IMG/VR virus record: IMGVR_UViG_3300033407_000006
Coordinates: 10,877-74,876 of that record
Reading direction: 5' to 3' (one strand)
DNA length: 64,000 nucleotides
Origin: a virus
Lineage: Duplodnaviria > Caudoviricetes
Shown here: one piece after another, positions 10,684-26,948 of the stretch
Numbering within the stretch: position 1 is the first letter of the stretch
How the letters are laid out: every line of letters starts with the position of its first letter
Notes under the pieces: model-generated
Told to the model about the DNA's origin: nothing
Database searches by the model: none
Seen by the model: only the letters and a program-made list of their open reading frames with translations
Made by a program: the position numbers and the translations under genes

Positions 10684-10719
10684 CGGAAACCTCTTTTTTG
10701 CGGGTTAAAAAGCCGTGTT

Positions 10720-10739
10720 GGCGGGCTAAACTATGTTAT
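10720..10739 (+). repeat. Array head site GGCGGGCTAAACTATGTTAT (attI-like, copy 1)
   Basis: Identical 20-mer at 26005-26024, ends in a GTT core. Confidence 0.65.
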
Positions 10740-10942
10740 AAGTCGCTCGTCAATTTGAAGTTGAACGGCCTCTCCGGGGTGTAGTGCTCGCGGATTGAGC
10801 GGTCACGCTCTCGCAGTTGCTCAACGATCCAGGCCTCTGCGAACTTTTCCAGCGTCGGGTAAAAGGTTCGCGTTTTCGTGCTGTCGTTGCCGGTCACGAT
10901 ATAGCCGTTATCAATGCGCTCTATCTGTACGTCAATTTCCAT
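10736..10942 (-). CDS. Cassette ORF, hypothetical
   Basis: Stop TAA inside the GTTATAA core, GGAGG RBS. Confidence 0.7.
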   Translation of the reverse strand: MEIDVQIERIDNGYIVTGNDSTKTRTFYPTLEKFAEAWIVEQLRERDRSIREHYTPERPFNFKLTSDL

Positions 10943-10963
10943 CAGTACCTCCGTTTAGGCGAC

Positions 10964-11066
10964 TCATAACCCGTCGCTGAAGACGACGCGCAATAGCTGT
11001 CGGGTTCGCGTTCGATTCAGTGGTGCGCCGTCGTCGGCGCGGCGCGTCTTACCTTTGTCGTTATGC
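10964..11066 (+). repeat. attC site A1 (103 bp)
   Basis: TCATAAC-N5-GCTGAAGA...TCTTACC-N6-GTTATGC. Confidence 0.8.
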
Positions 11067-11279
11067 GCCAGCATCACCATCCATCAGTCCACAACCAATG
11101 GCGCAATCTTCACAGTGAGGGTTTCCATCACCATCCACAATAGAGTCCTCTTCGCAGTGGCCTGTCGGCTCCTCACATTTGCTGCAAAGCTGCAAAGTTC
11201 CAGGGTAGTTATCTGCGTTCCAATGGGCGTGCTCCTCTTGCGTCATTGCATGTCTGCGTCCGCCTGGCCATGTGTTCAT
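11061..11279 (-). CDS. Cassette ORF, Cys/His-rich
   Basis: CSKC...HC...HCEDC, stop TAA within R' of A1. Confidence 0.65.
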   Translation of the reverse strand: MNTWPGGRRHAMTQEEHAHWNADNYPGTLQLCSKCEEPTGHCEEDSIVDGDGNPHCEDCAIGCGLMDGDAGA

Positions 11280-11315
11280 GGTGTTTCTCCTGTCCGCAAG
11301 ATGTTTAGCTAATTG

Positions 11316-11654
11316 TTATGCGTACAAACATTCACGCCCAGCCATCTCTGCGGAAATCCAGTCTCCATCCATCGCATTTCCATTGATGGCCTTCTCCAGT
11401 TGCCGCAGCGTGTCCCGCAAGGATTTCTCTAAATCGTTTATCCGGTCTTGCTTTATGCTCACAGTACCCTTCAGCTTCACGTTCTCGTCCCGCAGGTCTT
11501 TCAGTTCTGCGGCTATCGTGTCCAAAAAACCAACTGGATCTGCACTTGCCAACAGATTACCGCCGCTTATCATGTCGGCGAGTCTTCCAAAAGCCGCGTC
11601 AATTCTCGCCAGTTTCCCTTTCATGCTTCCCATAGTTTCCTCCAAAATTCGCAT
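11316..11654 (-). CDS. Cassette ORF, coiled-coil hypothetical
   Basis: ATG inside R'' of A2, TAA inside orphan R' at 11315. Confidence 0.65.
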   Translation of the reverse strand: MRILEETMGSMKGKLARIDAAFGRLADMISGGNLLASADPVGFLDTIAAELKDLRDENVKLKGTVSIKQDRINDLEKSLRDTLRQLEKAINGNAMDGDWISAEMAGRECLYA

Positions 11655-11716
11655 AACCAGCGGGTCAACTCGGATTGCGCAAACTGCCGCGCAACCGGTT
11701 ACCCTTGTCGTTATAA
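11651..11716 (+). repeat. attC site A2 (66 bp)
   Basis: GCATAAC-N5-GGTCAACT...GGTTACC-N6-GTTATAA, extra C in L''. Confidence 0.85.
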
Positions 11717-11902
11717 ATCTTTGTGCGAAAGAGTGGCGGCACGTACGTACTCGCTTGGAGTAATTCCTGCCACCACAGCTTTGCGCTCTACCTCATCCCA
11801 CTCTTCAGCCGTCCAGCGGGTTTGCTTAACAACGTCCCGCACAGGTTTGCGGCTGGTCGATCCTTGCGGCCTGCCCCCGCCTCGCCATCCTCCTTTAGGC
11901 AT
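11711..11902 (-). CDS. Ribbon-helix-helix (MobC-like) DNA-binding protein
   Basis: GGWRGGGRP...RWTAEEW..VERKA..AGITPSEYVR. Confidence 0.7.
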   Translation of the reverse strand: MPKGGWRGGGRPQGSTSRKPVRDVVKQTRWTAEEWDEVERKAVVAGITPSEYVRAATLSHKDL

Positions 11903-12128
11903 GGTCGCCCTCCACAAATGAGCATGGTGCATAATCAAGAGGATCTCCACCGAGCATCCCCGGCTTTATGTTCCATCCACAGCGCCAGGGGTCAATCATA
12001 CTTGCCAGCTCCGAGCGCAGTGCGTTCTTTTGCAGGACAAAGCCGGTGAATCGCTGCCGGTATCTGCACCCCGCCGCACATTCGGGCGGGGTGCCGGTAT
12101 TCGTTGGGTCTGCCGGTAGTGGCCTCAT
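11895..12128 (-). CDS. Hypothetical protein
   Basis: ATGA-coupled to the upstream ORF within the promoter cassette. Confidence 0.5.
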   Translation of the reverse strand: MRPLPADPTNTGTPPECAAGCRYRQRFTGFVLQKNALRSELASMIDPWRCGWNIKPGMLGGDPLDYAPCSFVEGDHA

Positions 12129-12313
12129 ACCCACCCCCCAGTTTCTGGGTCATATGCTTGGCGGCCACAAAAAACCGGATCAGGGCTGTGCGAAACGCGC
12201 ACCAACGAAGCAGCACCAACAAGACGGGCAGACTCGAAGCGCAGGTACGCGAGGCCAGCAAGCGGGGTGGAATCAGCGAGGGTGCCATTGATGTGAATTT
12301 CATAAGTTTCCAT
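12125..12313 (-). CDS. Hypothetical protein
   Basis: AGGAG RBS downstream of a sigma70 promoter. Confidence 0.6.
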   Translation of the reverse strand: METYEIHINGTLADSTPLAGLAYLRFESARLVGAASLVRVSHSPDPVFCGRQAYDPETGGWV

Positions 12314-12344
12314 GTTTGTTCTCCTATGTCGTTAAGTTGATTTA

Positions 12345-12373
12345 AATATATTTCAACTTTGTTTTCTTGTCAA
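12345..12373 (-). promoter_or_regulatory. Cassette-internal sigma70 promoter TTGACA-N17-TATATT with overlapping inverted repeat
   Basis: AAGTTGA (12334-12340) / TCAACTT (12352-12358) flank the -10. Confidence 0.75.
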
Positions 12374-12425
12374 TACAAAAAAACAACTAAACTATTAATT
12401 TGCCACGGAAGAGACGCCCAAAGAT

Positions 12426-12483
12426 TTATAACAAGTCAATCAACCGGATTCGCTACGCTCTCCGGTTATTTCAGTCGTTAGAT
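12426..12483 (+). repeat. attC site A3 (58 bp)
   Basis: TTATAAC-N5-AATCAACC-GGATTCGCTACGCTCTCC-GGTTATT-N6-GTTAGAT, textbook architecture. Confidence 0.92.
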
Positions 12484-12500
12484 TCTAAATCTGCGCAAAA

Positions 12501-13295
12501 TCAGACAAAGCACATGCCGCTCGAACAGTATCCGCCCGCATCGAATAGGGTCGGTTCTGCGGTAAAGTCCACCTGGTCCAGCGGTGTGCATGATCGGTGC
12601 AGCCAGGCGCACGGGTCGAACGCCTGCATTTCCCTCTCGAACGCCACCGCTTGAGCAAATTCGTCCGGTGCGTTCTCCTTCAGGTCTTTCCATTCGTCGT
12701 CGGCTTGGTTCGGGCACATCCAGCAACGCGACCTGGGCGGCTTCGGCCACCCCATCTTCTCGACTTCGCGGATTCCGTGGTGCCTCTTCATCGGCACATC
12801 GTGAATCATCGGAAACCGGATAAGCCCTTTTTCCCATTCCGGCCCCGCCATCATTCGCAAAGCCCGGCGCGTTTCGTCCATGCTGAATCCGATCCACATT
12901 TTCACCTTTGAGCGGGTCAAACCGAATGTCTTGCTCAAAAAACTCTGAATGACTCGGTTTTTCCATTTGCTTGAACAAAACCCCGGCATCTTGCCGACGT
13001 TCCCGGTCTCGTCTGTCCATGTTGGCAAAATCATGGTCTTCCCGCTCGGGTCAAGCCAGTTCGGATCTTTTGCATAATGACCGCCCCACTCATCGCAGCA
13101 CACACGATGAATTTCTACCCCTACCCCTGCCAGTGCAGGCAACGTAACGGCGTTAAGGTATTGCCACGTTGTCCCGCATTCCCGACCAGTGTCGGCAATC
13201 ACCGCAAGATCCGGCTTCGGCAGCTTTCCTTGAATTATCAGCGAAGCGATACAGTTGCTTTGCGTCCCGCCTCCGCTGCTAAAAACCTCAACCAT
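12501..13295 (-). CDS. Cassette ORF: PP-loop adenine-nucleotide alpha-hydrolase (PAPS reductase/DndC-like) family protein
   Basis: SSGGGTQS PP-loop, ADTGRE, CSSKWK, RSRCWMCP, terminal CSSGMCFV. Confidence 0.7.
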   Translation of the reverse strand: MVEVFSSGGGTQSNCIASLIIQGKLPKPDLAVIADTGRECGTTWQYLNAVTLPALAGVGVEIHRVCCDEWGGHYAKDPNWLDPSGKTMILPTWTDETGNVGKMPGFCSSKWKNRVIQSFLSKTFGLTRSKVKMWIGFSMDETRRALRMMAGPEWEKGLIRFPMIHDVPMKRHHGIREVEKMGWPKPPRSRCWMCPNQADDEWKDLKENAPDEFAQAVAFEREMQAFDPCAWLHRSCTPLDQVDFTAEPTLFDAGGYCSSGMCFV

Positions 13296-13334
13296 TTAAC
13301 CCCCTATCGGGCTGCGCCCGAGCGCAGATTTAGA

Positions 13335-13392
13335 ACCTAACCCAGCGGTGAAGCGGATTCGCTCCGCTCTCCGCTTACCTCAATCGTTACCT
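13335..13392 (+). repeat. attC site A4 (58 bp)
   Basis: ACCTAAC-N5-GGTGAAGC-GGATTCGCTCCGCTCTCC-GCTTACC-N6-GTTACCT. Confidence 0.88.
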
Positions 13393-13537
13393 TGCAAGTT
13401 CTACATTTCATAGTTGCCTCCAACGCCTCAGACCCCGGCGCACAGGGCTGCCGCCAGGGTCGCCGCTGTCCACCTCAATGGCGATCTGGTCGTAGCTGGG
13501 CCGTATCCCCGCCGCCGCCTCGCCTGGGCTGTCAATT

Positions 13538-13867
13538 TCAAAGATGATTTTCTTCATAGACCTCTCCCTCGTTCAGCTCTTTTGCCATGCCGAGCGGCCA
13601 CCAGCGGGATATACAGCCGGGGCTCCGCATTGAAATGACCATCTCGGACGCTTCGAGCTTATTTAGAAGCCTGCGCGTGTTCTCAATGCTTTTCCCGGCA
13701 ACTTCGGCGATGCTGACGGTCAACGGCCCAATATCAACGGCCACGGCGTCGCCTTTTGAAACGTAGTAGTTCATGCAAAAACTGCTTTTAGCCACATGAG
13801 TCCGGCAGCAGGCTTTGAGCGCTTCGAGAACTTTTTCTGCTTCGGCGGAAATGACTCTGTTTTTCAT
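13538..13867 (-). CDS. Hypothetical, possible winged-HTH protein
   Basis: 109 aa, GGAGGGAG RBS, LTVSIAEVAGKSIENTRRLLNKL. Confidence 0.6.
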   Translation of the reverse strand: MKNRVISAEAEKVLEALKACCRTHVAKSSFCMNYYVSKGDAVAVDIGPLTVSIAEVAGKSIENTRRLLNKLEASEMVISMRSPGCISRWWPLGMAKELNEGEVYEENHL

Positions 13868-13890
13868 GGCTCCCTCCCTTCTATGCCTTC

Positions 13891-13922
13891 AGTATCGCAA
13901 AAGGAATTTATCAACCCATTCA
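13891..13922 (-). promoter_or_regulatory. Repeated promoter/operator element, copy 2
   Basis: TGAATGGGTTGATAAATTC-CTTTTGC-GATACT. Confidence 0.65.
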
Positions 13923-13926
13923 CTAT

Positions 13927-16407
13927 TCAATCGTTCCCTGCCAAAATCTTTTTGGCCCGCTCCAGCGCCTCGTTTCTCTCCCGGTCGCTGGCCTCTTCAA
14001 CCGGCGTGTAATCGACCAAGTAGAAGAAGCAAACGGTATCGAAAAGGTCCGGGGATTTGATGCCCTGCGAGGCCATTTGATCCTTGGGAAGGATGGAGTA
14101 GCGGCCCTTTTCGTCCATCTTGTAAGGGATTTTGCTGCCCTGCTCCACGATCTTCTTGTTGCGGGGGATATGAATGCGCTGCTGCCTTAAGGCCTCCCTG
14201 GCCTGATACGAGGCGTAGGCCCGCAGGTTCTTGTATCGGCGCTTGTCGGTCTCCGAAAACGGCGGAAGGCCCCAATGGATTGTTTCGCACGGAACGCCCA
14301 GCTCTTCGAGCGTCAGGATGACGGTGCGACCCGGCCCGTCGCCGTCGATTGCAACGGTGATGTTGGGGAAGTCTTGAACCCGCTGATAGATCTCTCGGGC
14401 AAAGGCCAATTCGTCCTTGTCCAGGTATTCGACCGTCTCCACGATATCGACCTTGCGATCCGGGCCGTAGCCGCTCACTTTGGCGATGGACCAAACGGAC
14501 GAATCCCGGAACTTCCCTTCAGCAACGTCTGCGGTCAGAATCCAGCCCCAGGCCTCTTTGTGCTCAATCTGATTGGTCTGCGCATCCTCAAGCCATGATT
14601 TCGGAATGAGAAAGCCGCTCATGTTGTCGGGTAGCCGCCCCAGAACCTTGATCTGGTACTCAGGGCTGTGGTGCCCGCCGTACTCAATCAGCTTCATTTC
14701 GATGAATTCGCGGGTGACAAGCGGACTTTCTTCGGAGTTGAGATTCAACGTCTTGTAAAGACTGGAGTTTTGCCCCCACGCGTCGGCAAAGTGACCGTTT
14801 GCCCGCGTCGGCTGCGAGACCATGATATATCGGTTTCCGGCTTGGGTCAGGGCGCCGCGCAAAACGCCGTGAATGACATCATCCACGCCCGAGGCCTCAT
14901 CCACCACGCACAGGTAATTTTCGTTGTGCTGGCCCGCCAGTGATTCCGGCTTGGACTTCGAGGCGGTACGGGGGATGACGTACCACGAATCTTTCCAGTG
15001 CTTGTTGAAGTACCGCTTTGTTTCCTTGACGAAGTGGCCCCGCTGGTAAGGGTTGATAGCCTCCACGTCGGCGATGACCTCATCCATGTACTTCCATACG
15101 CCCGTGCGGCACTGGTCGATGCTGTTTGCGGTCAATAGGGCGTTGCTCAAGGGGTAAACGCGAAGATGCCAATCGAAGAGCCAAGCGAGCAGAAAGGTCT
15201 TGCCGGTATTATGAAGAACGGTGAAGTCTCCACCAAGAAATTTGCTGTTTCCGTCGAGGATGAAGCCGTAATAGTCACCTTCGCCTAGTGGAGCGCAGCT
15301 TCTTATCCCGAAATTAAGGTTGGGCCGGTTCTTGTTTCTATCTATCGGTTTCCTTCTTTCTACTCGGACAGGTATCTTGTCGATATTTCTGCCTATGTTG
15401 ATCCGCCAATAATCTCCCACCGCTCCGGTGTTGCAGCATTTTTTTCGAGTCTTATTAACTGTAGCATGACAACCAATCGATTTAGCCAGCCACACAATAT
15501 CTCTTGCGAATCTTTCGCTCTTTTGAACAACGTCGAATGCTGTGCCCGCGCTTGCTAAAAACCCATCAGTATCAATAATGCCAGCCAAAAGCTCTAGCCT
15601 GTCTTGGTATGGCGCAAGCAAGTATTTTTTAGGTATGTGCAGTTCATCTGTTAAACCATGTGCTCGAAGAGTTTCGATGAATGGATTGGCCCTCCCTTTT
15701 CCTATCCCAATGTGCCACATCCTGGCTTTGCCGCTCGCCCCCCAATAGGTAAGCCTGTAGCCCTTAGAAACTGCATACCGGCCCCATGCCTCGCTTACTT
15801 CTCTATCTGGTGTCGTTATCGTTGGCGTGTGAATATGTCCATCTCCTAGCCAGAGTCCGAGTATATATGCCGGGATCGGTAGCTCTTCGGGCTCCCAGCC
15901 GAAATCATTTACACTCGCCCTGTAGACAGCATGGCAACGCTTTCTATCGGCTCCCCATTGCAGCCAATCCCTAACCGTCACCTCAGTTTTCTCTCCAGAC
16001 TCTCTGCGGCCTTTTGAGTTTGTTGCGACAAGGCAAAGGATATGACTTTCGTTGAAGACGTGGCTAGACCCGTCGTTGTAGGTGAAGCGATACAGCGCCT
16101 CCCGGCCACGTTTTAGCGCCAAGACGTTTCGCGGCGTACCGTCATCGCCCATAAGGATGTCGCCCACATTCACGCTCTCAACCGGCTTTATCTCGCCGCT
16201 ATGCAGCATGATTTCGGTTCCAAGGCCGAAGCAGCCGTGCCCGGACGCTACCGCAACCTGGGCCCCGTGCTCCTGCGCCAAGCGAATGAAATCCTCCTGC
16301 TGCCAGGACATCCGCTGTCGACAATGGTGATCGACGTAATCCATGAGGTTGTTACGGTAGCGGGCGCAGAAATCGATGTAATCGGGATTGGAAAAGAGGG
16401 TGCTCAT
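13927..16407 (-). CDS. terL: Terminase large subunit (P1 PacB-like) with intein
   Basis: SGHG|TGKT Walker A split by the intein, VVDEASGV Walker B, TADVA nuclease motif. True start ATG 16407 is coupled to the upstream stop. About 484 aa after splicing. Confidence 0.93.
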   Translation of the reverse strand: MSTLFSNPDYIDFCARYRNNLMDYVDHHCRQRMSWQQEDFIRLAQEHGAQVAVASGHGCFGLGTEIMLHSGEIKPVESVNVGDILMGDDGTPRNVLALKRGREALYRFTYNDGSSHVFNESHILCLVATNSKGRRESGEKTEVTVRDWLQWGADRKRCHAVYRASVNDFGWEPEELPIPAYILGLWLGDGHIHTPTITTPDREVSEAWGRYAVSKGYRLTYWGASGKARMWHIGIGKGRANPFIETLRAHGLTDELHIPKKYLLAPYQDRLELLAGIIDTDGFLASAGTAFDVVQKSERFARDIVWLAKSIGCHATVNKTRKKCCNTGAVGDYWRINIGRNIDKIPVRVERRKPIDRNKNRPNLNFGIRSCAPLGEGDYYGFILDGNSKFLGGDFTVLHNTGKTFLLAWLFDWHLRVYPLSNALLTANSIDQCRTGVWKYMDEVIADVEAINPYQRGHFVKETKRYFNKHWKDSWYVIPRTASKSKPESLAGQHNENYLCVVDEASGVDDVIHGVLRGALTQAGNRYIMVSQPTRANGHFADAWGQNSSLYKTLNLNSEESPLVTREFIEMKLIEYGGHHSPEYQIKVLGRLPDNMSGFLIPKSWLEDAQTNQIEHKEAWGWILTADVAEGKFRDSSVWSIAKVSGYGPDRKVDIVETVEYLDKDELAFAREIYQRVQDFPNITVAIDGDGPGRTVILTLEELGVPCETIHWGLPPFSETDKRRYKNLRAYASYQAREALRQQRIHIPRNKKIVEQGSKIPYKMDEKGRYSILPKDQMASQGIKSPDLFDTVCFFYLVDYTPVEEASDRERNEALERAKKILAGND
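15208..16233 (-). mobile_element. Intein with LAGLIDADG homing endonuclease (342 aa)
   Basis: Starts CFGLGTEI, ends VLHN followed by T. LLAGIIDTDG motif. Lower GC than flanks. Confidence 0.93.
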
Positions 16408-16691
16408 AGATGCAGCCAAGGCTTTGCGGCGATATCGGGGATCAACTCCAGAAGCTCCCCTTCGGTTGCGATTGAAGCCTCGAACGATTCTCTTCCGGCA
16501 TGGACGGCAACGCCCCGGCCCCCTTGCCGGTGATGTGCCGGGCAAAGGGGGATTCTCGGGGCGTTGCCGCGCTTTGAGCCACCGCGCCGGATATGGTGAA
16601 TTTCAGCCGGTGACGTGCCGTAGCCGAGGCGGTGACAGGCCATGCAGCCGAACGAGGCGAGTTGCGAATCGGTGAAGTCTGTGTCGGTCAT
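16404..16691 (-). CDS. Ref-like HNH nuclease
   Basis: GCMAC...EIHH...IPLCPAHH...VHAG, like the C-terminal domain of P1 Ref. Confidence 0.75.
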   Translation of the reverse strand: MTDTDFTDSQLASFGCMACHRLGYGTSPAEIHHIRRGGSKRGNAPRIPLCPAHHRQGGRGVAVHAGRESFEASIATEGELLELIPDIAAKPWLHL

Positions 16692-17320
16692 GTCGCGGCG
16701 GGAATATCTGCCAGGGCGAAGACGATCCCCCGGCAGAATTGTTCATCCTCTTCCACGATGATAAAAGTTTTGTGAGGGATATCGGTCTCGAATTCCCAAA
16801 AGGGATCACCCAGGTCGTTCCAGATAGCCTTGATCTTGGCCGCTTCTTCTTTCTGGCGGGAATACTGGCGGCACTCAGGGTTATGGCACTCGTTTCTGAG
16901 CAAGCCCTTGTCGGTCACAAAGATTTCGGTGCCGTTGTAGGCGTCAACTTCGTCATCGATTGCTCCAAGGAGCCGGACAAGATCGTCGCTGTCGCCATGG
17001 ACGATGACGATCCCGGCCTGCTTGGCCGCATCGATAATGAATTGCGGAACCATGTCGCGCCCGTATTCTGCGCCATAAAGATATCCTGCGATTTCCGTTG
17101 TGGTCATTGAATCCCCCCCCGCCCCGTAAGGCGCTCCGAGTTTGGAAGCAGCGGCATCCATCCTGCGCAGGTGCGTTTGCTGTTTTTTTTGCAGTTGGTT
17201 TATCACGCCAGAAGTGCCCTTGACCCGCTCAAGCAATTCTATGGCGGCATGGGTCAATTCGAAATCTGTGTGTGCGCGTTGGAATTCAATGAGATGCTTT
17301 CTTCGCGTCTTAGCGTCCAT
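16688..17320 (-). CDS. Hypothetical phage protein, possibly two fused ORFs (internal start 17107)
   Basis: G-rich RBS before internal MTTTE. C-terminal half has the GDSDDL...DE...FCRGIVF pattern. Confidence 0.65.
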   Translation of the reverse strand: MDAKTRRKHLIEFQRAHTDFELTHAAIELLERVKGTSGVINQLQKKQQTHLRRMDAAASKLGAPYGAGGDSMTTTEIAGYLYGAEYGRDMVPQFIIDAAKQAGIVIVHGDSDDLVRLLGAIDDEVDAYNGTEIFVTDKGLLRNECHNPECRQYSRQKEEAAKIKAIWNDLGDPFWEFETDIPHKTFIIVEEDEQFCRGIVFALADIPAAT

Positions 17321-17329
17321 CGTCTCCTC

Positions 17330-17617
17330 CTAGATTTTCCGTTTCAACTCAATATCGAGAAGCCCCTTTTGATAGGCCTCCCGGATCTGTGCCGTCACCT
17401 CCTCGCGGCCCATTTCGACCGCAGAGACCCATGACGGTGTTGTTCCCATAGCCTTTGCCAGCTCCCGGACGGTCACATCCTCGGCTTCCCGCAACTTCGC
17501 CAGGACTTTGCCGTCGCTGTAATGCGGGCCGCGAGATATGGGCAGTTGCCCATACTTTTGCTCATATTGCTCATGGGTGAGGAATTCGTGCTTTCCGTCT
17601 TTGTTGACGTGGGTCAT
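17330..17617 (-). CDS. XRE-family HTH protein
   Basis: LREAEDVTVRELAKAMGTTPSWVSAVEMG. Confidence 0.75.
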   Translation of the reverse strand: MTHVNKDGKHEFLTHEQYEQKYGQLPISRGPHYSDGKVLAKLREAEDVTVRELAKAMGTTPSWVSAVEMGREEVTAQIREAYQKGLLDIELKRKI

Positions 17618-17746
17618 GACCTCACCTCCATCAGCTTGCCGCAGCACTTCGGCGCTGTGCTGTCCTGAAAATACGGTATCCACGCCTTGCGAGTGCCGCA
17701 CTTGGGACATTCGTACTCCTTGGGGCCGGTCAGGATTCCCACTTTC

Positions 17747-18022: not shown

Positions 18023-18065
18023 CACTTCCCCTTGTCTGAATGCGTCTCGAACCGTGCCGGAATAC

Positions 18066-18577: not shown

Positions 18578-18586
18578 GGCTCCCTC

Positions 18587-19273
18587 TCAGTGGAAAAGTT
18601 GACCCTGTTTCAATTCGTCTTCGATCCGCTTGCATGCCAAATCGAACGCCACCCGCCGGATCTCGCAGCCGATGAACTTTCGCCCGTTGGTCACGGCGGC
18701 AACGCCTGTTGTCGCCCGGCCCATGCAGGGGTCAAAAATGGTTTCCCCCACGTCGGTGAAGTCGTGAACGAAGTGGCTCAGGAGAGACAGCGGTTTCTCT
18801 GTCGGGTAGAGCGCTCCCCTGGCGACGGGTACGCTCCAGGTTCCCGCCTTGCCGCCACCGTTCCACCGCTTGCGGCCTTCCCGATGCAGGATTGCCACGG
18901 CCTCGAAACCTTGGCCCGGCCTGTCGCCGGAAATTTGCGGCGTCGGATTCGGCTTGACCCAGATCCCGTGCCGGACAAACTCGGGCCAATCGTACAGCAG
19001 CGGGATATGTTGGAAGTCGCAGGTGGAAACCACCCACCGCAGAGACACCCGCAGGAACTCCGCAAAGAACGTGGCGAATTCTTCGCCGCTGATGGAGCTA
19101 AAATCGATGAATTCCTCGGCCCCGGCCTTATTGGTCTTGGCGTTACTGTGCGTCCTGTTGTGGTACGGCACGTCGGTGATGATGTGATCAACGCTACCCT
19201 CTTCCCATGACGCCATCAGCTCCCGCGAGTCTCCCAGGTACAGCGTTGCGTCTCCGATAATTTCCTTTTCCAT
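18587..19273 (-). CDS. DNA N4-C/N6-A methyltransferase (variant motifs)
   Basis: LYLGDS, TDVPY (motif IV), YPTEKP, FDPCMGRATTG (motif I), FIGCE. Confidence 0.85.
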   Translation of the reverse strand: MEKEIIGDATLYLGDSRELMASWEEGSVDHIITDVPYHNRTHSNAKTNKAGAEEFIDFSSISGEEFATFFAEFLRVSLRWVVSTCDFQHIPLLYDWPEFVRHGIWVKPNPTPQISGDRPGQGFEAVAILHREGRKRWNGGGKAGTWSVPVARGALYPTEKPLSLLSHFVHDFTDVGETIFDPCMGRATTGVAAVTNGRKFIGCEIRRVAFDLACKRIEDELKQGQLFH

Positions 19274-19295
19274 GTTCCCTCCTGTCGGTCCAAAC

Positions 19296-19327
19296 ACCTT
19301 AACATTGTGAATTTATCAACCCACTCA
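19296..19327 (-). promoter_or_regulatory. Repeated promoter/operator element, copy 3
   Basis: TGAGTGGGTTGATAAATTC-ACAATGT-TAAGGT. Confidence 0.65.
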
Positions 19328-19361
19328 CTAAACGATGTCAGGAGAGAAAAAACAAAAAAAA

Positions 19362-19727
19362 TCAGGCCCGATACCATTTGCCATCCCGCCAATGAAAAGG
19401 GGCCGGGGCCGTGCCGCCGCGCTTGGCCTTGTCCACCCAGCGGCGATGCACGGCGCTACAGGTTTTGCACATGCGATATCTGGAGTTCCCGTCGAAGAAA
19501 TCCCCGTCGCAGCCGACAACGGTGCAGGGCGTCATCTGCATGCGGCTGATGGAGCCGAAAGTGACTTCCCGCGTCATCTTGCTGGAGACCTCCTGCTCCA
19601 CGCGCCAGCTACAGAGGCGGCAGCGCACGACTCGCACCAGAATCATCGCTTCGGTCAGGTAATCGTCTTCCACCACAAGGTTTGACCCTGGGGCCCGGCA
19701 TTTACCGCAAGCGCAATCACCGGCCAT
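19362..19727 (-). CDS. Multi-Zn-finger hypothetical protein
   Basis: CGKC, CRLC, CTVVGC, CKTC. Confidence 0.6.
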   Translation of the reverse strand: MAGDCACGKCRAPGSNLVVEDDYLTEAMILVRVVRCRLCSWRVEQEVSSKMTREVTFGSISRMQMTPCTVVGCDGDFFDGNSRYRMCKTCSAVHRRWVDKAKRGGTAPAPFHWRDGKWYRA

Positions 19728-20637
19728 CGCCTTCCTCCCATTGCTCAGAGTCTTTGAGGCGGGCCTTGCTCTCTTCGATTTCGGCCCGGCGCTGGGGTAC
19801 AAACTGCTCCCGCTGCTCTTCGCGGGCCTTTCGCATCTCGGCAGCCCGGCGCTCCAGCTCTTCCGTTGAAGGCGGCTTGGCGAACCTGTCTTCGAGGCCT
19901 TCTTCCTTCATGATCGCCAGTTCCAGCACCTTGGGCAGGGGCAGCCCCAGGCAAGCGAACTCGAAGCCGCCTTCCTTGGCCGTGATCTCCCCGCTCTGAA
20001 CCCGTCGCAGGATCTTGGCCTGGGCATCGGTGACGCGCTGGTGCGCCTCGCTGAAGAGCTTCTGATACCGACCCATCATCTCGCGGGCCTTCTGAACGTC
20101 GTGGGCCTTCACCTTGACTTTGCGGACCCGGCCCAGGACGGGATTGCCTTCGGCGTCGGTGTCGATTTCCTCCAACACCTCTTCCACGTCGATTTCCCGG
20201 ATCTGGGCAAGCTGGTCCGGGGTCGCCTTCTTCAGGTTGAGGATCGGCATGCCGCGCTCGTCCACGTCGAAGAAATCGAACATGCTGGCCCGCGCCGTAT
20301 TGGAAATCAGGCGCAAATTCTCATCAATGGTAAGAATCGCCTCTTTTTCCCGCCCGGCTATCAGTTCTTTCATGAGTTCTGCAACTTGAACCTTTTTAAA
20401 CAAGGCGCTGGCCTTGGTCCCGGCAGAGCTTTTGGAGTAGTTGGTGTAGATTTTCAGATAAGCGTTGGTCATGGAAAGCGTCGGATCTTTGACGCGCTCC
20501 ATGACGACAAGCCAATCCTTATGGGTAAGGCCGTAGCTGTTGCGTTTTACTGTAGGCTCTCGTTTTTTCTGGGTTTTTTTCTTCGCGGCAGGTTTTTTAG
20601 GCGCTGGTTTCGTGGCCCGTGCTTTCTTTTCAGTCAC
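19717..20637 (-). CDS. terS: Terminase small subunit (PacA-like)
   Basis: Basic N-terminus, SMTNAYLKIY...AGTKASALFKK, KVKVKAHDVQKAREMMGRY, P1 PacA-like C-terminal GLPLP. Confidence 0.75.
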   Translation of the reverse strand: MTEKKARATKPAPKKPAAKKKTQKKREPTVKRNSYGLTHKDWLVVMERVKDPTLSMTNAYLKIYTNYSKSSAGTKASALFKKVQVAELMKELIAGREKEAILTIDENLRLISNTARASMFDFFDVDERGMPILNLKKATPDQLAQIREIDVEEVLEEIDTDAEGNPVLGRVRKVKVKAHDVQKAREMMGRYQKLFSEAHQRVTDAQAKILRRVQSGEITAKEGGFEFACLGLPLPKVLELAIMKEEGLEDRFAKPPSTEELERRAAEMRKAREEQREQFVPQRRAEIEESKARLKDSEQWEEGDGR

Positions 20638-20830
20638 GGGCCCCTCCATCCACAAAGTCGAACCAGTTTTCTTTCCAGCGGTCCAGGTCCGTGACGCGCC
20701 CGCACCAGTGCCCTCCGATTTTGACGATGGGGATGTCGAGCCGCGCCTTCCACTTCTTGACCCAAGTGGGGGATCTGCCGATATGGTCGGCGATTGCCAC
20801 CATTCCCCAGATTTTGCCGTCGCGTGTCAT
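20630..20830 (-). CDS. Excisionase-like/HTH DNA-binding protein
   Basis: IWGMVAIADHIGRSPTWV...IPIVKIGG. Confidence 0.6.
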   Translation of the reverse strand: MTRDGKIWGMVAIADHIGRSPTWVKKWKARLDIPIVKIGGHWCGRVTDLDRWKENWFDFVDGGARD

Positions 20831-20874
20831 GCCTTCCTCCTTTTAAAGCCTTATTGCTGAATAACAATGAAAAA

Positions 20875-21072
20875 TCAAGCACTTTTCCAGATTGAAATAA
20901 CGCGGCGGTGCGCCAGCTTCCGTGTTGCTTTGCGGTATCCAATGCGGCGGATGATGCCCATGTGAGAGGCGGCAATGAACAGGCCGCCCCATGCGTTCGG
21001 GTGCGGCGGGTCGCCAACATTTCCTGCAATTTGCCATGAGCTACCCCCCTTTAGTCCGCGTTTTCGTACCAC
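20875..21072 (-). pseudogene. Possible C-terminal remnant of a phage protein
   Basis: PPHPNAWGGLF...GY.KA.R..AH.R motif without an N-terminal domain. Confidence 0.35.
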
Positions 21073-22115
21073 ACTATGACGGGCAGCATCGGACTCGGTG
21101 CCGTGGTTCTGTATTCCAGAAACCTCTTGAACTTCTCGCGGAAGAGGTTGAGGCCGGTCTCGATAAGCGCCAGCTTCTCGGTGCAGACCGCCAGCCGCTC
21201 AAGCTCTTCGTCGTCAGCGGCCTTGTCGAGCACGACAGAAGGGGTCTTCATGCTCTTGATGTCGAAAGTTTCTGCGTCCAGGTTGAAGGACCAGACATCT
21301 TCCCCTTTTTCCATGACGATGTGCGCTTCGACAATCGACTTGCCCGCCAGGAGGGCAGACTTTATTTCGGTGAAGCTGAACTCGGGTCCACTCACGGCGA
21401 CCTTGCCGCCGTCGTCTTTGAGGACCACCTTTTCGCAGATGTACGCAGAGCCGTCGTTGTCGGTGTCCGTCTTCCATGCCAGCCACTTCAGGAACTCTGC
21501 TCCGAGGTTCGAGTTTTGAGAGACGCGCAGCAGGTAATCATCGTCCTTGCTCCCCTCGTCCAGCCCGGCGGCTTTCTCGCCGAGCAGCTCGTAGGCGATA
21601 TCAATCGGCGCGATGGGAACGAATCTCAGGCCGGGCGCGGTCAATCGAAAGAGATCCGTCACCGTGTCGCACTCCCTGGCGGACGAGGTGAAAATCATGG
21701 CTGAAGTGCTGGAGATACAGAACTGCGTGACCTTCGCAATGGGGTAGGTTTTCGGCAGCAGTTCGGCGATCACCGCTTCGAGCATCGCCTCCTTCTTCCC
21801 CTTGGGAACACGCTTGAGGCCGGGGTGTTCTGCCAGGAAGGCCGCGCTTGCAGCCGCAAGGTGCCGCTTGACGACCGACGGGGGGATTTTCCGCCGGTCC
21901 TGGCGCATGGCGAACAGCCTGTTGTCTTCGTGGGTCAACCTGCTGAGTTCCGTGAAGCGCTCAGGGTCGAGCGGATCGACGAACCCGACGGATTCGGCTC
22001 TTGCCACCTCATCGATGGGCTGGAATGCCAGTTGGGTGATGTTCTTGCCCTCCTGGGCATCTTCGGCGACGACGCGGTATTGCTTGATTGCAGTTTTGCT
22101 TTTGAACAGGCTCAT
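21051..22115 (-). CDS. rdgC: Recombination-associated protein RdgC (P1 HrdC-like)
   Basis: AFQP.....SVGFVDP...FAMRQDRRKIPPSVVK, LGAEFLKWL. Confidence 0.8.
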   Translation of the reverse strand: MSLFKSKTAIKQYRVVAEDAQEGKNITQLAFQPIDEVARAESVGFVDPLDPERFTELSRLTHEDNRLFAMRQDRRKIPPSVVKRHLAAASAAFLAEHPGLKRVPKGKKEAMLEAVIAELLPKTYPIAKVTQFCISSTSAMIFTSSARECDTVTDLFRLTAPGLRFVPIAPIDIAYELLGEKAAGLDEGSKDDDYLLRVSQNSNLGAEFLKWLAWKTDTDNDGSAYICEKVVLKDDGGKVAVSGPEFSFTEIKSALLAGKSIVEAHIVMEKGEDVWSFNLDAETFDIKSMKTPSVVLDKAADDEELERLAVCTEKLALIETGLNLFREKFKRFLEYRTTAPSPMLPVIVWYENAD

Positions 22116-22127
22116 TTCTTCCCTCCG

Positions 22128-22463
22128 CTACACGGTTTTGATGATGACAGGGTACAGGTCTTCTACCTGGGCCCGCTTGAGTTTGAAGGTTTCGGTCTCA
22201 AATCCCTTGGTATCCACGAAATGAACGGTGCCATCCGCGTGAAACTCTTGGAAATCGATGACGTACCGGATATTCCCCGGTAGATGAAAAGGCACTTGCC
22301 GCAGGAAGAAAAGAACCTCCCCGGCCTTCTGTCTTAGCTTCAGCTCGCTGTAGTACCGCGCCTCTTTCTTGGAATCGAAGCGGATGCCGTCAACGACAAC
22401 GGCCTGTGCGGCGTACTTGCTTTTCTTCTGGCCCGTGAATTTGTGCCGGACGATTCTGGTCAC
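22128..22463 (-). CDS. DUF1064 family PD-(D/E)XK nuclease-like protein
   Basis: SKYAAQAVVVDGIRFDSKKEA...YVIDF...VDTKG. Confidence 0.85.
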   Translation of the reverse strand: MTRIVRHKFTGQKKSKYAAQAVVVDGIRFDSKKEARYYSELKLRQKAGEVLFFLRQVPFHLPGNIRYVIDFQEFHADGTVHFVDTKGFETETFKLKRAQVEDLYPVIIKTV

Positions 22464-22475
22464 TTGAGCTGCCTT

Positions 22476-22859
22476 TCAGTGGATTGTCTTCGATTGTGGC
22501 ACATTGAATTTGTCATCCCATTCACTAAAATCGTGGTCCCTCGACAAATCTGCGCCGCGATTGATGCCGAAGTGCTCCGACGAATGGTATTTGCCGCGCC
22601 CGAGGAAAAAGCCGTTGAGCCCCTGGGTCTGGAGCTTGCGGAAAAACGTGGGGTAGGGCACGTCCATCAACTCCGCAGCCTTGCGGCGGGAATAGCCCTG
22701 TTGGGCGAGTTCCTGAACGGCGTCTTTATCCAGCAGCCGGGAAGCCTCCAAGCACTCGCGGGAACAATAGCGCTGGTGCATCCGGCTTTCGGTGACGTGG
22801 AATTTCTGCCTGCATCGCTCGTTCTCGCACTCAACGGCGTACCTTGTGTGTCTACGCAT
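22476..22859 (-). CDS. Zn-finger/HTH protein
   Basis: CENERC...YCSREC, YSRRKAAELMDV. Confidence 0.6.
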   Translation of the reverse strand: MRRHTRYAVECENERCRQKFHVTESRMHQRYCSRECLEASRLLDKDAVQELAQQGYSRRKAAELMDVPYPTFFRKLQTQGLNGFFLGRGKYHSSEHFGINRGADLSRDHDFSEWDDKFNVPQSKTIH

Positions 22860-23136
22860 CTCCCTGCCCCCTTCTGGTTTTCATGGACGCTGCCGCGCCG
22901 CGCCGGGCGTAGGTTCTCAGGGACGTTGCCCATTTGCGGCCCGCTGGCTTCGATGACTTCTTCGCCAGCTTGTCCATGCTCTGCGCCTGGGTGCATCCGG
23001 CGCACAGCTCTCCGTTGTCTCCGTTGCGGTACTGCTCGCAGGCGAAGGGGGCGATCCTGGCGTTGTGCAGATCGCACTTGACCGCGTTTTTCTCCAACCA
23101 TTCCTCCTGGTGCGTCTTGTCCATGGTTCCCTCCAT
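22852..23136 (-). CDS. Cys-rich hypothetical protein
   Basis: KC...AC...CAGC. Confidence 0.55.
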   Translation of the reverse strand: MEGTMDKTHQEEWLEKNAVKCDLHNARIAPFACEQYRNGDNGELCAGCTQAQSMDKLAKKSSKPAGRKWATSLRTYARRGAAASMKTRRGQGDA

Positions 23137-23259
23137 GTCAAAGTTTTGAAATTTCAGTTTTAAGGCCGATATTTTTTTCGGGCCCTTGCCTTGGTATGTC
23201 TTCCTCGGCCTTTTGCGGCCCTAGGGGTCATTCTGTGCCGACTGCGTTGATTTACGGTC

Positions 23260-24063
23260 TTACTCTGTGAGGGCTGAAGATAATTTTTTTTGCAAATCGG
23301 ACTTGAGCTTCTCTTTCCGGTCTCGGATTTGAGCTATTTCCTGCCTAAGCTCTTCGTCCTTCATCCGCCGCTGCTGTTCATCACGAATTCTGCCCTTCTC
23401 TTCCAGGTCTTCGCGCAGCTTGCGAAGTTTCGCCAGAAAGACCGGCTTCAGGTTTTCAGTGGGTTGTTCAGCCCCGGCCACCATGGAAATGAGAGCCCGG
23501 CCTTCCGCAGTCGTATCCTGTTGCAGCAGGTTGGAGACAGCGGCCCTGGGCAAAATCCCTTGTTCAACCGCCTCCCGCGCCACGGCTGCGCGGTGTTCCG
23601 GGTCAAAGCCTTCGGAGAGATACCAGCGAGCCAGCCCGCCTCGTTCTTTTGCGCGAGCAACCGCCCGGTCGTATGCGTCCCGAAAGCAAACCCTCGCCCC
23701 AACCTCATCCCCGCTCTGAAAAATCGCCCGGCATGCGCTCCAGGCTTCCAAAATCTCCGGGCAGATGACGGCACTCTTGCTCTCGTCCGACAAGCCGAGC
23801 GCCTTTGCCCAGGCCTCGTTGCCGGACAAAAAGCCGTCAGGGTTTTCGGCTTCAATCGCTTCGATGAAATCGGCGGGGAGGGGGAAAGTCCGAAACTTGT
23901 GAGTTCGGCTCACCCTCTCTATCGCCCGAAAAACTTTGTCCTTGCCGTAGGGGGCCAGAATGTCCTCATAGGCCCGGATTTTGGTTGCAGAGACATCAAC
24001 GCTGATTAACTCCGACAAGGCAAAGAGTCTGCACCCTATCGCCTTCCTGGTTTCCTCGTTCAT
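23260..24063 (-). CDS. Replication helicase loader/accessory protein (lambda P-position)
   Basis: Follows the initiator, FPLPADF, EAWAKAL, ARVCFRDAYDR. Confidence 0.6.
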   Translation of the reverse strand: MNEETRKAIGCRLFALSELISVDVSATKIRAYEDILAPYGKDKVFRAIERVSRTHKFRTFPLPADFIEAIEAENPDGFLSGNEAWAKALGLSDESKSAVICPEILEAWSACRAIFQSGDEVGARVCFRDAYDRAVARAKERGGLARWYLSEGFDPEHRAAVAREAVEQGILPRAAVSNLLQQDTTAEGRALISMVAGAEQPTENLKPVFLAKLRKLREDLEEKGRIRDEQQRRMKDEELRQEIAQIRDRKEKLKSDLQKKLSSALTE

Positions 24064-24998
24064 CGGCCCTCCATGTATCGCCGGAACTCTTCCCGGTTCC
24101 GATCCGTCGTTGTGGCGGCGCGGCCTGCGTTGTTTTTAGCGCCACCACGGTCCTGCTCCCTTGAAAGCCAATTGACAAGGAACGCCTTGATCCCGCTTTT
24201 GGTTTTCCGACGCTTGGGGTTCGCGTCCGACCATGCCGCTGCCTTGCGAAGCTCCTGCAACACATCGACCGCCGGGAAAAGCTGCGTCCACTGGTCAATG
24301 TCCGACTGCGGGACGTGGTGCGCCTCGCCCCCTACCAGTGGGATCTGAATCACTGATCCGCCCTCGGGGGGCAAGACTTCGATGGTCGGCTCTGAGTTTT
24401 GCTCAGAGCAAGAATCTTCGTAAGAAGATTCCTCTCCTTTTGTTTTTAAAGGAGAAGGAGAAGGAGAAGGAGAAGGAGAAGGGGTTCGGTCGAACGTCCG
24501 AACGCTGCGTTCGGGGTTGTTCGATTTTCGTTGCGTAACATCTTGATTTTTACGGCTTTCTGTTTTTGCTTCGTTCGGGCTGTTTTTGGTGGTCGTTCGG
24601 GAGCCGTTCGGGAGAGGTTGCGCGGTCCCTTTTTGTGCCTTTCGAGCCGCCGCACTTGCCTTCCCGGCCTTCCTTGCAGCCGCCTTTCTTTGCTCACCGT
24701 TTACCGCCCAAGGCTGGTGTTCTTCCCAATCTTTCGGGGCGTACCCGTTGGGTGTTTCGATCAGGAACTTTGCTTCGAGCATGCCCCTTACGAACACGCC
24801 GGGCTCCCCTTCCCAGCCAGCAACGTCTTCAATGTCTTCGTTCGACCACCCGTTCAACACTCCGTTCGGGCGTTGTTCGGCAACTGTGGTCCAGAAGCAG
24901 ATCAGGTTTTCCATGGCGGTGGGGCCCACCATGCGTCGCAATCGCTTGAATTTCCTATGTCTCGGCAATTTCACGTCTATGCGAATGTCAGTGTTCAT
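24060..24998 (-). CDS. Phage replication initiator
   Basis: HRKFKRL...LICFW N-terminal wHTH, PS linker, C-terminal FPAVDVLQELRK..AW..ANP.RRKT..G...F..NWL. Confidence 0.8.
   Translation of the reverse strand: MNTDIRIDVKLPRHRKFKRLRRMVGPTAMENLICFWTTVAEQRPNGVLNGWSNEDIEDVAGWEGEPGVFVRGMLEAKFLIETPNGYAPKDWEEHQPWAVNGEQRKAAARKAGKASAAARKAQKGTAQPLPNGSRTTTKNSPNEAKTESRKNQDVTQRKSNNPERSVRTFDRTPSPSPSPSPSPLKTKGEESSYEDSCSEQNSEPTIEVLPPEGGSVIQIPLVGGEAHHVPQSDIDQWTQLFPAVDVLQELRKAAAWSDANPKRRKTKSGIKAFLVNWLSREQDRGGAKNNAGRAATTTDRNREEFRRYMEGR
24450..24482. repeat. (AGGAGA)5 tandem repeat encoding a PSPSPS linker
   Basis: Direct inspection. Confidence 0.9.
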
Positions 24999-25020
24999 TG
25001 GCTCAACCTAGTGCCTGGAG

Positions 25021-25218
25021 TTATTTCAAATCTGCATACCCTGGAACCTTCTTTGCTTCTTCTTCAAGTTGGCGGATTTTCTTGCGGTGCGCTGTTTGCG
25101 GCTCATGGTTTTCATTCTCCCATGTCCGCCAGGTGTTGCGGTGAACTTTAACCCTGGAAGCGGCTTGCTCCTGCGTCAATTCCAGCGCTTCCCGGATAAG
25201 CTCAAATCGGTTTTTCAT
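25021..25218 (-). CDS. XRE-family HTH protein
   Basis: IREALELTQEQAASRVKVHRNTWRTWE. Confidence 0.8.
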   Translation of the reverse strand: MKNRFELIREALELTQEQAASRVKVHRNTWRTWENENHEPQTAHRKKIRQLEEEAKKVPGYADLK

Positions 25219-25314
25219 GGCTTGGCCTTTCTTTTATTGTTGTTCTTTTTCTTACACTGTAAGGCGCACGAATGCCAGCCGTCAATCCCTTTTTCGCAAA
25301 AACGCGAAAAGGTC

Positions 25315-25662
25315 TCAGCTCATGCCGTAGCCGCGCTGCTCAGAGCGCCTGCTTGCCTCTCTGGTGCGCAGCAACTCCGCTTCGAGGCTCACTCCCTCCA
25401 TGCGGACGCGCAGCGACTCATAGGCGATTGTGGCCCGCTCCAAGTCGTCCAGATAGACCATGTACCCGTCACTGGCGTAGGCCTCCCGCTCCTGTGCCGC
25501 CGCTGTCTTGTGGCCCTCCTTCCCGGCTTGCACCATTTCGAGCGCAAGCCGGGTTTTTTTCATCTCTTCGAGCTTCTTCATGCGGGCTTTGGCAACGGGG
25601 ATTTCGGCGGCGCAGCGGCGATACTCCGACATCAGCCTTTCAATTTTTATGTCAAGATCCAT
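25315..25662 (-). CDS. Coiled-coil hypothetical protein
   Basis: 115 aa, helical. Confidence 0.65.
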   Translation of the reverse strand: MDLDIKIERLMSEYRRCAAEIPVAKARMKKLEEMKKTRLALEMVQAGKEGHKTAAAQEREAYASDGYMVYLDDLERATIAYESLRVRMEGVSLEAELLRTREASRRSEQRGYGMS

Positions 25663-25665
25663 GCG

Positions 25666-25761
25666 TTACCGGCACGGGCTGTAGCCGCAATGGGGGTAGA
25701 TAGGGCACCCTCCTTGCGGGATCATTTTGTTGCCGCAGTCGGGGCAGGTTGTAGCCTTCAT
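25666..25761 (-). CDS. 31-aa Zn-ribbon miniprotein resembling the class II RNR C-terminal tail
   Basis: Manual translation MKATTCPDCGNKMIPQGGCPIYPHCGYSPCR, GGAGGAAG RBS. Confidence 0.45.
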   Translation of the reverse strand: MKATTCPDCGNKMIPQGGCPIYPHCGYSPCR

Positions 25762-25958
25762 TCGTCAACTTCCTCCTTCATAAATTCATGGTACGGGCTG
25801 CCATTGATGAGTCCGTGCATGGCGTCTTCCCTGGCACCTTCTGAGCGGTAGCGTCTGAAGACAATCCATTCGTCGCCGTAGAGGCGTTGCCCGTTTTTGT
25901 CCGGCTTGCTCCGGTACAGAATCGCATAGGGCTTTCGATGTTGAGGGCGGTAGGCCAT
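25758..25958 (-). CDS. Hypothetical protein
   Basis: 66 aa, AAGGAG RBS. Confidence 0.6.
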   Translation of the reverse strand: MAYRPQHRKPYAILYRSKPDKNGQRLYGDEWIVFRRYRSEGAREDAMHGLINGSPYHEFMKEEVDE

Positions 25959-26004
25959 AAGGCTCCTTCATTCTTGGTTTGGACCGGAATTAGACGGCCA
26001 GATC

Positions 26005-26024
26005 GGCGGGCTAAACTATGTTAT
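26005..26024 (+). repeat. Array head site GGCGGGCTAAACTATGTTAT (attI-like, copy 2)
   Basis: Identical to 10720-10739. Confidence 0.65.
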
Positions 26025-26634: not shown

Positions 26635-26645
26635 TCTCCGATCCC

Positions 26646-26935: not shown

Positions 26936-26948
26936 TTTTGACCTCCGC

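Follow-up and report, generated by a model that had tools for sequence, protein, structure and literature searches.

We analysed 64,000 nucleotides (the window; feature coordinates are window positions) of the IMG/VR virus record IMGVR_UViG_3300033407_000006, which has a length of 74,876 bp and direct terminal repeats, the window being positions 10877-74876 of the record. The record (phage G000 below) is a temperate tailed phage, as judged by its gene content. It carries two arrays of integron-type attC sites, A and B, and both arrays begin with the same 16-mer, GGCGGGCTAAACTATG, ending at a G after which the cassettes start. On balance, we favour reading these shared bases as the left, invariant half of a duplex site of the attI type, standing once at the head of each array and recombined by an integron integrase (IntI) of the host. 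We infer that IntI binds and cuts the head, that the host supplies this enzyme and that cassettes are captured in the phage and not before the arrival of the arrays; a host-supplied enzyme is suggested because no gene for a tyrosine or serine recombinase is present in the phage (no match to PF00589, TIGR02249 or PF00239 in a six-frame search of the whole 74.9-kb record).

The repeated head site and the attC arrays

The original prediction held that a 20-mer, GGCGGGCTAAACTATGTTAT, begins both arrays as their 5'-most GTT, without a hairpin partner and in otherwise unrelated DNA, and that it is the insertion platform. The 20-mer is indeed present, letter for letter, at 10720-10739 and 26005-26024, both on the plus strand, and these are exactly two copies in the record; no further copy was found with up to three mismatches in the window or up to two in the whole record, and none of 100 shuffled sequences gave a match.

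To map the arrays, nine hairpins were located by eye and with a script, and their alignment, in which 6 of the 13 consensus pairs covary, was turned into a covariance model (R1). The hairpins follow one plan, in which xTAAC is separated by a 5-nt unpaired spacer from a stem whose 5' arm holds one extra base, and after a variable loop the return stem leads across a 6-nt spacer to GTTAx. They thus show the imperfect R''-L''/L'-R' inverted repeat, the unpaired central spacer, the extrahelical 5'-arm base of the top strand and the TAAC...GTTA ends by which attC sites are recognized. R1 detects ten attC sites in the 75 kb, one of them new beyond the nine hairpins, all on the plus strand and all within array A (four) or array B (six), and none outside them. 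With four and six consecutive attC sites and no intI, the arrays are clusters of attC sites lacking integron integrases (CALINs), and on this map each copy of the 20-mer is the 5'-most GTT of its array, as had been claimed. The sites and cassettes are as follows, the cassette boundaries being set by the complementarity to the cognate R'' described below.

10961-11070, 11648-11720, 12423-12487 and 13332-13396, plus strand: the four attC sites of array A (10961 to 13396), R1 scores 56.6-61.8 bits
10736-11060, 11061-11710, 11711-12477 and 12478-13386, plus strand: the cassettes of array A
26251-26315, 26643-26741, 26946-27017, 27289-27363, 27903-27978 and 28172-28264, plus strand: the six attC sites of array B (26251 to 28264), R1 scores 42.3-67.7 bits
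26021-26305, 26306-26731, 26732-27007, 27008-27353, 27354-27968 and 27969-28254, plus strand: the cassettes of array B

The polarity of the arrays decides which of their ends corresponds to attI. As a reference we used the aadA1 attC of plasmid R100 (100% match; In2 was taken with its annotation), which R1 scores at 43.5 bits on the aadA1 coding strand versus 13.8 bits on the opposite strand. In addition, we sampled 401 genomes from the class of genome G005, with the NCBIfam cut-off as the IntI threshold; 147 of them had IntI above this cut-off, which is an unusually high share (the count takes in four unpublished genomes, G047, G316, G304 and G149, whose sequence was not used). R1 placed attC sites on the strand opposite to intI, the canonical divergent layout, in 15 of 29 intI loci, and nine of these 15 yielded an attI junction, at a distance of 150-225 nt from the start of intI. 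Because of the aadA1 strand scores and the intI-bearing loci, the phage plus strand is taken as the attC top strand, with the 20-mer at the attI end. The reverse polarity, in which the minus strand would be the top strand and the 20-mer the tail of each array, was ruled out by the 30-bit strand difference at aadA1 together with the intI loci.

In integrons, a cassette begins, after the crossover (G/TT; the slash marks the crossover here and below), with bases complementary to the R'' flank of that same cassette. We therefore scored the first 12 nt from the G of each junction against the reverse complement of each R'' flank; cognate pairs agreed at a mean of 9.8 of 12 positions, versus 6.2 of 12 for 110 non-cognate pairs, and R'' and R' of the same site in situ agreed at a mean of 6.4 of 12. 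Head A (10735-10746) agrees with the first attC of array A at 11 of 12 positions, and head B with the first attC of array B at 9 of 12. This cognate complementarity at both heads places the crossovers between G10735 and T10736 and between G26020 and T26021, and the last four bases of the 20-mer, TTAT, are first-cassette DNA because they are complementary to the cassette's own R''. Thus, the G/TT crossover and the attI position of the proposed platform held up, and the full 20-mer as the site did not; the site-specific part is the 16-mer, perhaps with some 15 weaker bases upstream.

At the other end of the arrays, the last attC sites end in GTTACCTTGC (array A) and GTTAGGCCAG (array B), the same letters as read originally, and the final crossovers are G13386/TTACCTTGC and G28254/TTAGGCCAG, with right-hand flanks unrelated to each other. 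The empty sites that had been predicted, in which each head is joined directly to its right-hand flank, would be correct given an integron mechanism.

The description of the DNA around the heads as otherwise unrelated is largely borne out and fails for the 15 nt immediately upstream, as the similarity of the two heads extends over 35 nt at 80% identity (10705-10739 versus 25990-26024; repeat family D15). These upstream bases begin with TTA, 30 nt ahead of the crossover, and this element of about 15 bp may belong to the head site. The chance that 16 given bases agree at two predefined junctions is 4^-16. The parts of the two heads are listed here.

10720-10735, plus strand: head A, candidate invariant left half of an attI-like site, GGCGGGCTAAACTATG (exact repeat; crossover after G10735; cognate score 11/12; rank 11 of 2019 on the attI matrix described below)
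26005-26020, plus strand: head B, the identical 16-mer (crossover after G26020; cognate score 9/12 against the R'' flank of attC B0; rank 7 of 2019)
10736-10739, plus strand: TTAT, start of cassette A1 (distal R' part), cassette-borne, with the stop codon of the minus-strand open reading frame (ORF) 10736-10942 inside
26021-26024, plus strand: TTAT, start of cassette B0, cassette-borne, with the stop codon of the minus-strand ORF 26021-26263 inside
10705-10719, plus strand: weakly conserved upstream part of head A, TTAAAAAGCCGTGTT (8 of 15 bases common to head B; D15 and alignment)
25990-26004, plus strand: weakly conserved upstream part of head B, TTAGACGGCCAGATC (D15 and alignment)

The heads are not themselves attC sites. 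DNA folds of both heads on both strands gave z scores of -0.2 to -1.4, the level of shuffled sequence, with no partner arm, and R1 has no match at either head at E <= 10, in agreement with the claimed lack of a hairpin partner. The head as an attC site or a truncated attC half was accordingly rejected, the by-eye L'-R' alignment being poor as well. The head contains no dyad symmetry, and its inverted copy is absent from the window and from the whole record, by which we rejected a transposon terminal inverted repeat.

Outside the phage, the 20-mer is not widespread away from attC arrays in IMG/VR, GTDB representative genomes or metagenomes. An 18-mer, which would also pick up both predicted empty sites, had no match in IMG/VR and none in GTDB representative genomes; its four metagenome matches lie in unrelated DNA and continue with TT or CC instead of AT, none is accompanied by attC, and we take them as probable chance matches. 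Similarly, the 15-mer GGCTAAACTATGTTA has 20 IMG/VR matches in unrelated DNA, none near attC, which are presumably also due to chance. Neither an empty-site junction nor a head site was found in any relative in the collections searched.

Likeness to attI and related designs in other phages

The 4-nt spacer by which the head had been said to differ from attI1 was verified on plasmid R100, where GGCTAAA-CTAT-GTT of the phage stands against CCCTAAA-ACAAA-GTT of attI1, that is, CTAAA-N4-GTT against CTAAA-N5-GTT; in an alternative register, AAAC-N3-GTT is common to both. On R100, attI1 reads ...GTCGCCCTAAAACAAAG/TTAAAC, with GCCCTAAAACAAAG/TT as the core before the crossover, and its DR1 GTTA lies 31 nt before the crossover, compared with 30 nt for the upstream TTA of the phage. 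In global alignments of the 40-nt heads with attI1, shuffling gave p values of 0.003 (head A) and 0.028 (head B). We also built an attI matrix of 26 columns from the nine attI junctions of the intI loci plus attI1 and scored it on every GTT site of the two phage strands, 2019 in total; the heads ranked 7th (B) and 11th (A), and the R' junctions of the ten attC sites ranked from 43rd to 1950th. Judged by these comparisons, the likeness of the heads to attI appears modest but significant.

The position and layout of the heads resemble those of an integron attI in several respects, the comparison being with attI1 of class 1 integrons and with attI sites beside intI in chromosomal integrons of gammaproteobacteria. 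Both stand at the top-strand start of an array and have a G/TT crossover, a distal R box that comes from the first cassette and a left half that alone is conserved; both have a TAAAC/TAAAAC-type inverted box 2-3 nt before the GTT, with the phage TTA about 30 nt upstream recalling attI1 DR1; and neither forms a hairpin, an absence of structure from which we infer a duplex reaction. In contrast to an integron attI, the phage head has neither an adjacent intI nor a Pc promoter, it occurs in two copies per genome, and transcription in the phage runs toward the site and not away from it. Moreover, the phage head is not close to any sampled attI, the best ungapped match by eye being 9 of 16.

The same design recurs in other phages. 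With R1, attC arrays were found beside homologues of the cassette gene 12501-13295, which resembles 3'-phosphoadenosine 5'-phosphosulfate (PAPS) reductase, in the viral contigs L079 and L027 and in two short contigs of metagenome-assembled genomes (MAGs), the attC sites being without exception antisense to that gene. The record of L079, IMGVR_UViG_3300049841_000025 (G006; 31.9 kb), has no PF00589 in any frame and two arrays, both of which start with the same sequence of about 37 bp, CGTTAACGnGATGTCGAAAACACG/TTAGGCCCCAAG (TTAGGC after the crossover), in unrelated flanks. The 21-mer core of this head has one further occurrence in IMG/VR, at the small array of IMGVR_UViG_3300009031_000015 (G008; 44 kb, CheckV completeness 100%, no PF00589), a mosaic relative, where it is followed by another first cassette and adjoins a homologous phage gene. 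A 13-site array in G008 has the head GATGCTGCCTAAAACACG/TTGTGCTTC (core GCCTAAAACACG), which is cognate to the R'' of its first attC, GAAGCACAAC.

The heads of G006 and G008 (GTCGAAAACACG and GCCTAAAACACG) closely resemble attI1 and, even more closely, a real attI that adjoins intI in locus L116, GGGGGTCGAAAAACAAG/TTAGGC (core GTCGAAAAACAAG/TT); the match of attI1 with the G006 head, though the cores are alike by eye, was not significant against shuffles under the scoring used here (p = 0.44). As in G000, the arrays of G006 and G008 come two to a genome, without an integrase, with antisense cargo and with a conserved attI-like left half ending in G/TT before unrelated right flanks; unlike in G000, their heads are much nearer to attI1 and L116, and the part common to the G000 head is the CTAAA/GAAAA-N4-GTT skeleton only. 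On sequence grounds, there are then three integrase-less phages with two arrays each, every array being headed by a conserved left half that appears attI-like. Neither in G000 nor in the other phages is any sequence conserved to the right of the last attC, and conservation of the left half alone fits the finding of Loot et al. (bioRxiv 10.1101/2022.09.11.507474) that attI1 stays active when another sequence takes the place of its right part.

A counter-example is the viral contig L027, whose array head, CACAATCAGTAG/TTATAAATC, has perfect cognate complementarity and no attI-like motif; it may be an insertion of the attG type, that is, at a secondary site. The viral record that holds L027 also contains, among its attC sites, a PF00589 fragment with an in-frame TGA (L103, G007:C1:28624-28785), which may represent a decayed integrase beside a cassette array of the phage.

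As a separate observation, the head of G006 and G008 starts exactly at a second G/TTAACG (L079 8100-8064 and 3842-3806, minus strand; L107 996-1036), so that a GTT site stands on either side of its 23-nt attI core, as in a mini-cassette. The core may have travelled in this form, possibly explaining its spread to new loci. The left edge in G000 reads G/TTA in head A and A/TTA in head B, and the idea is therefore not extended to this phage.

Antisense cargo and competing explanations

The cassettes of G000 carry their genes in an unusual orientation. All cargo genes with Pfam or PHROG support lie on the minus strand and all attC sites on the plus strand, and the cargo is thus antisense to the attC polarity:

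10736 to 13295, minus strand: cargo of array A, including a NikA-like ribbon-helix-helix (RHH) protein (11711-11950) and a PAPS-reductase-like protein (12501-13295), from Pfam, PHROGs (phrog_424) and homologues
26021 to 28220, minus strand: cargo of array B, including a ProQ_C-like protein (26299-26634) and an HTH_31 protein (27354-27602) with an upstream partner ORF (27545-27841), from Pfam and PHROGs

In a canonical cassette, the gene is on the attC top strand and the attC downstream of it, a layout that the phage cassettes do not share; under the same model, the first cassettes of bacterial integrons had a long ORF on the sense strand in seven of nine cases. Antisense cargo was also seen in the arrays of the phage and MAG contigs L079, L108, L027, L010 and L017, and several cargo start and stop codons fall within R'' or R' boxes. 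Because all of the cargo is antisense, the phage cassettes do not simply come from ordinary host integrons. Nor can they be ordinary cassettes inserted backwards, as inversion flips the attC along with the gene; by the same reasoning we rejected top-strand recombination as the source of mirror-image cargo, since inversion of a cassette leaves the orientation of gene and attC unchanged. The antisense cargo further implies transcription from the far end of the array toward the head, and new cassettes would therefore enter at the distal end of the operon. A possible reason for the antisense layout is that, if the genes are co-oriented with replication, the recombinogenic bottom strand comes to lie on the template of the lagging strand.

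In the mechanism that we propose, the head 16-mer would be the invariant half of a putative duplex attI-type site, and the TTA that follows would be supplied by whichever cassette comes first. The folded bottom strand of a cassette attC would recombine with the head at G/TT, and the cassette would enter between the 16-mer and whatever lay to its right, where it may still be exchanged; catalysis would fall to an integron-type integrase of the host cell. More generally, and only tentatively, integrase-less temperate phages might keep attI-type landing pads, two per genome, borrow the integrase of the host and collect a phage-specific pool of mirror-image cassettes, in which the cargo is antisense and the folded bottom strand lies on the coding strand.

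Several observations weigh against host-driven capture at the heads. The DNA to the left of the crossover stays in place in every IntI reaction, and such reactions would not account for a second copy of the head. The attI matrix comes from ten sites only and the two heads are not independent, and the heads lack the GTCKAC-type core that is present in most of the sampled bacterial attI sites. The antisense cargo is unlike that of the seven bacterial first cassettes mentioned above, and the phage has no intI or any other site-specific recombinase in its record, for which CheckV estimates a completeness of 77% despite the terminal repeats. Finally, neither a close relative of the phage nor an empty site, by which turnover at the head could be seen, turned up in the collections searched.

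The absence of an integrase, of relatives and of visible turnover would also suit inert relics, that is, leftovers of a bacterial attI that came with the arrays, or the product of one internal duplication, inactive for recombination in the phage; Qi et al. (2023, PMC9892861) suggest that illegitimate recombination brings integron fragments into phages. We nevertheless consider relics unlikely, since the heads are identical at 20 of 20 positions while the DNA on either side is unrelated, and likewise in G006 and G008 only 23-25 nt of attI-like DNA are common to three loci. Repeated illegitimate capture of just the minimal left half is improbable without selection, and a simple segmental duplication is at odds with the different first cassettes at the two heads.

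It is quite unlikely that the heads are targets of a non-integron recombinase, such as host XerCD or an unrecognised phage enzyme, in a phage-specific integron-like system. Such a system could account for cargo that is mirror-image throughout in comparison with canonical cassettes, and the left arm of the head is, by eye, loosely like the XerC arm of dif. However, the attC of aadA1 and those adjacent to intI score on R1 on a par with the phage hairpins, no PF00589 was found in any frame of G000, G006 or G008, and the G006 and G008 heads nearly reproduce real attI cores.

A promoter, operator or RNA signal of the gene after each array, with cassettes inserted at its GTT by happenstance, would explain why both copies are intergenic and, in the direction of transcription, precede the next gene by 47-60 nt, and IntI is able to use many GWT sites. 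This explanation is very improbable in our view. A simple scan of both strands within 250 nt of the heads, covering promoters of the sigma-70 type only (two hexamers with 16-18 nt spacing) and intrinsic terminators (GC stem plus T run), found none in 10500-11000 and none in 25800-26300; the head has no dyad and no fold, the downstream genes are unrelated, and both of the only two genomic copies end exactly at the cassette crossover. In addition, two other repeated intergenic motifs of the phage (families D2 and D5, described below) look different. The genes concerned are the following.

10033-10659, minus strand: next phage gene past head A in the direction of transcription (phrog_1837, function-unknown), not paralogous to the gene past head B
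25758-25958, minus strand: next phage gene past head B in the direction of transcription, 66 amino acids, function-unknown (from the ORF list)

Two independent insertions at secondary sites of the attG type, which require GWT alone and of which the L027 head is possibly a case, would have to share bases by chance, and this is effectively refuted by the exact repeat of 16 bases to the left of both crossovers, with a further 8 of 15 upstream. Secondary attG sites share only GWT, and attI has been proposed to have evolved from such hotspots (Loot et al., bioRxiv 10.1101/2022.09.11.507474). Like attG sites, the phage heads would be double-stranded targets joined to attC at G/WT outside an integron; they differ in the 16-31 nt that are conserved between the two phage loci.

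Integrons are usually treated as bacterial devices made up of an integrase, an attI and cassettes. If the heads are capture sites used by a host integrase, phages without an integrase would maintain the capture site itself and rely on the enzyme of the host; such a parasitic integron would consist of the platform only, and newly captured cassettes would join the operon at the end that is distal for transcription. Capture of this kind would offer a concrete route by which genes could pass between the cassette pools of phages and integrons, including defence, counter-defence and toxin-antitoxin genes, and the consistent mirror-image cargo would bear on how cassettes arise and why strand choice matters. 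Phage CALINs with IntI1-competent attC sites were reported in 2023, the route of cassette entry into the phage genome being left open, and no conserved head site was reported for integrase-less phage CALINs (Qi et al., Front Microbiol, PMC9892861). The same work describes the Shewanella prophage M16-3, which encodes IntI and in which a Shewanella attI is the head of a complete integron and also of a CALIN. G000 shares with these phages the attC clusters without an integrase, and with M16-3 the same head on two arrays; it differs from M16-3, which has IntI and a known Shewanella attI, in having no integrase, a head unlike any described attI and cargo that is all antisense. Our literature search found no paper on conserved attI-like heads in integrase-less phages or on systematic antisense cargo. 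Thus, phage CALINs are already known, and what appears to be new, as far as sequence comparison can tell, is the conserved attI-like heads without an integrase together with the systematic antisense cargo.

Further features of the cassettes and the phage record

The PAPS-reductase-like cassette protein has many phage homologues, and its best homologue, 64% identical (locus tag KI809_18830), is from Geobacter pelophilus, on a 75.7-kb contig. A search of genome contigs with the PAPS profile gave at least eight loci, and none of the five MAGs or genomes reached through these loci had IntI above the cut-off. Two AT-rich stretches (12320-12420 and 27800-27900) lie inside cassettes upstream of two-gene modules, one consisting of a 103-aa ORF and the NikA-like RHH protein and the other of a 98-aa ORF and the HTH_31 protein, and one of these stretches contains the imperfect palindrome GTTGA-N12-TCAAC. 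The modules look like self-promoted cassettes of the toxin-antitoxin type, as in chromosomal integrons.

The markers of a temperate phage in the record are a CI-type repressor, a Gp3-like recombination directionality factor, SbcCD and a T4-like portal. The repressor and the directionality factor are encoded at 32734-34957, yet the record, bounded by its direct terminal repeats, contains no tyrosine or serine integrase. A search with the SbcC-like protein reached just two phages, at 33-37% identity, both without arrays or a head-like sequence and syntenic in SbcCD alone. The gene downstream of head A has no relative among viral contigs and eight metagenome homologues, all on short contigs. Beyond array A lies a gene with an intein:

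13927-16545, minus strand: 872-aa protein with an intein (Hint plus LAGLIDADG homing endonuclease); the protein hosting the intein matches phrog_5902 and phrog_34449, both function-unknown

Two other families of intergenic repeats were noted. Family D2 is a motif of about 54 nt in three copies (9485-9538, 13875-13928 and 19280-19333), ending in GGAATTTATCAACCCAyTCAyTAwwC; one copy lies upstream, in the sense of transcription, of the small gene preceding array A, and the motif could be a phage promoter or regulatory site. Family D5 is a 58-nt element with TTGACA in two copies (672-729 and 46068-46125) that are 86% identical, and it looks like a duplicated promoter or operator.

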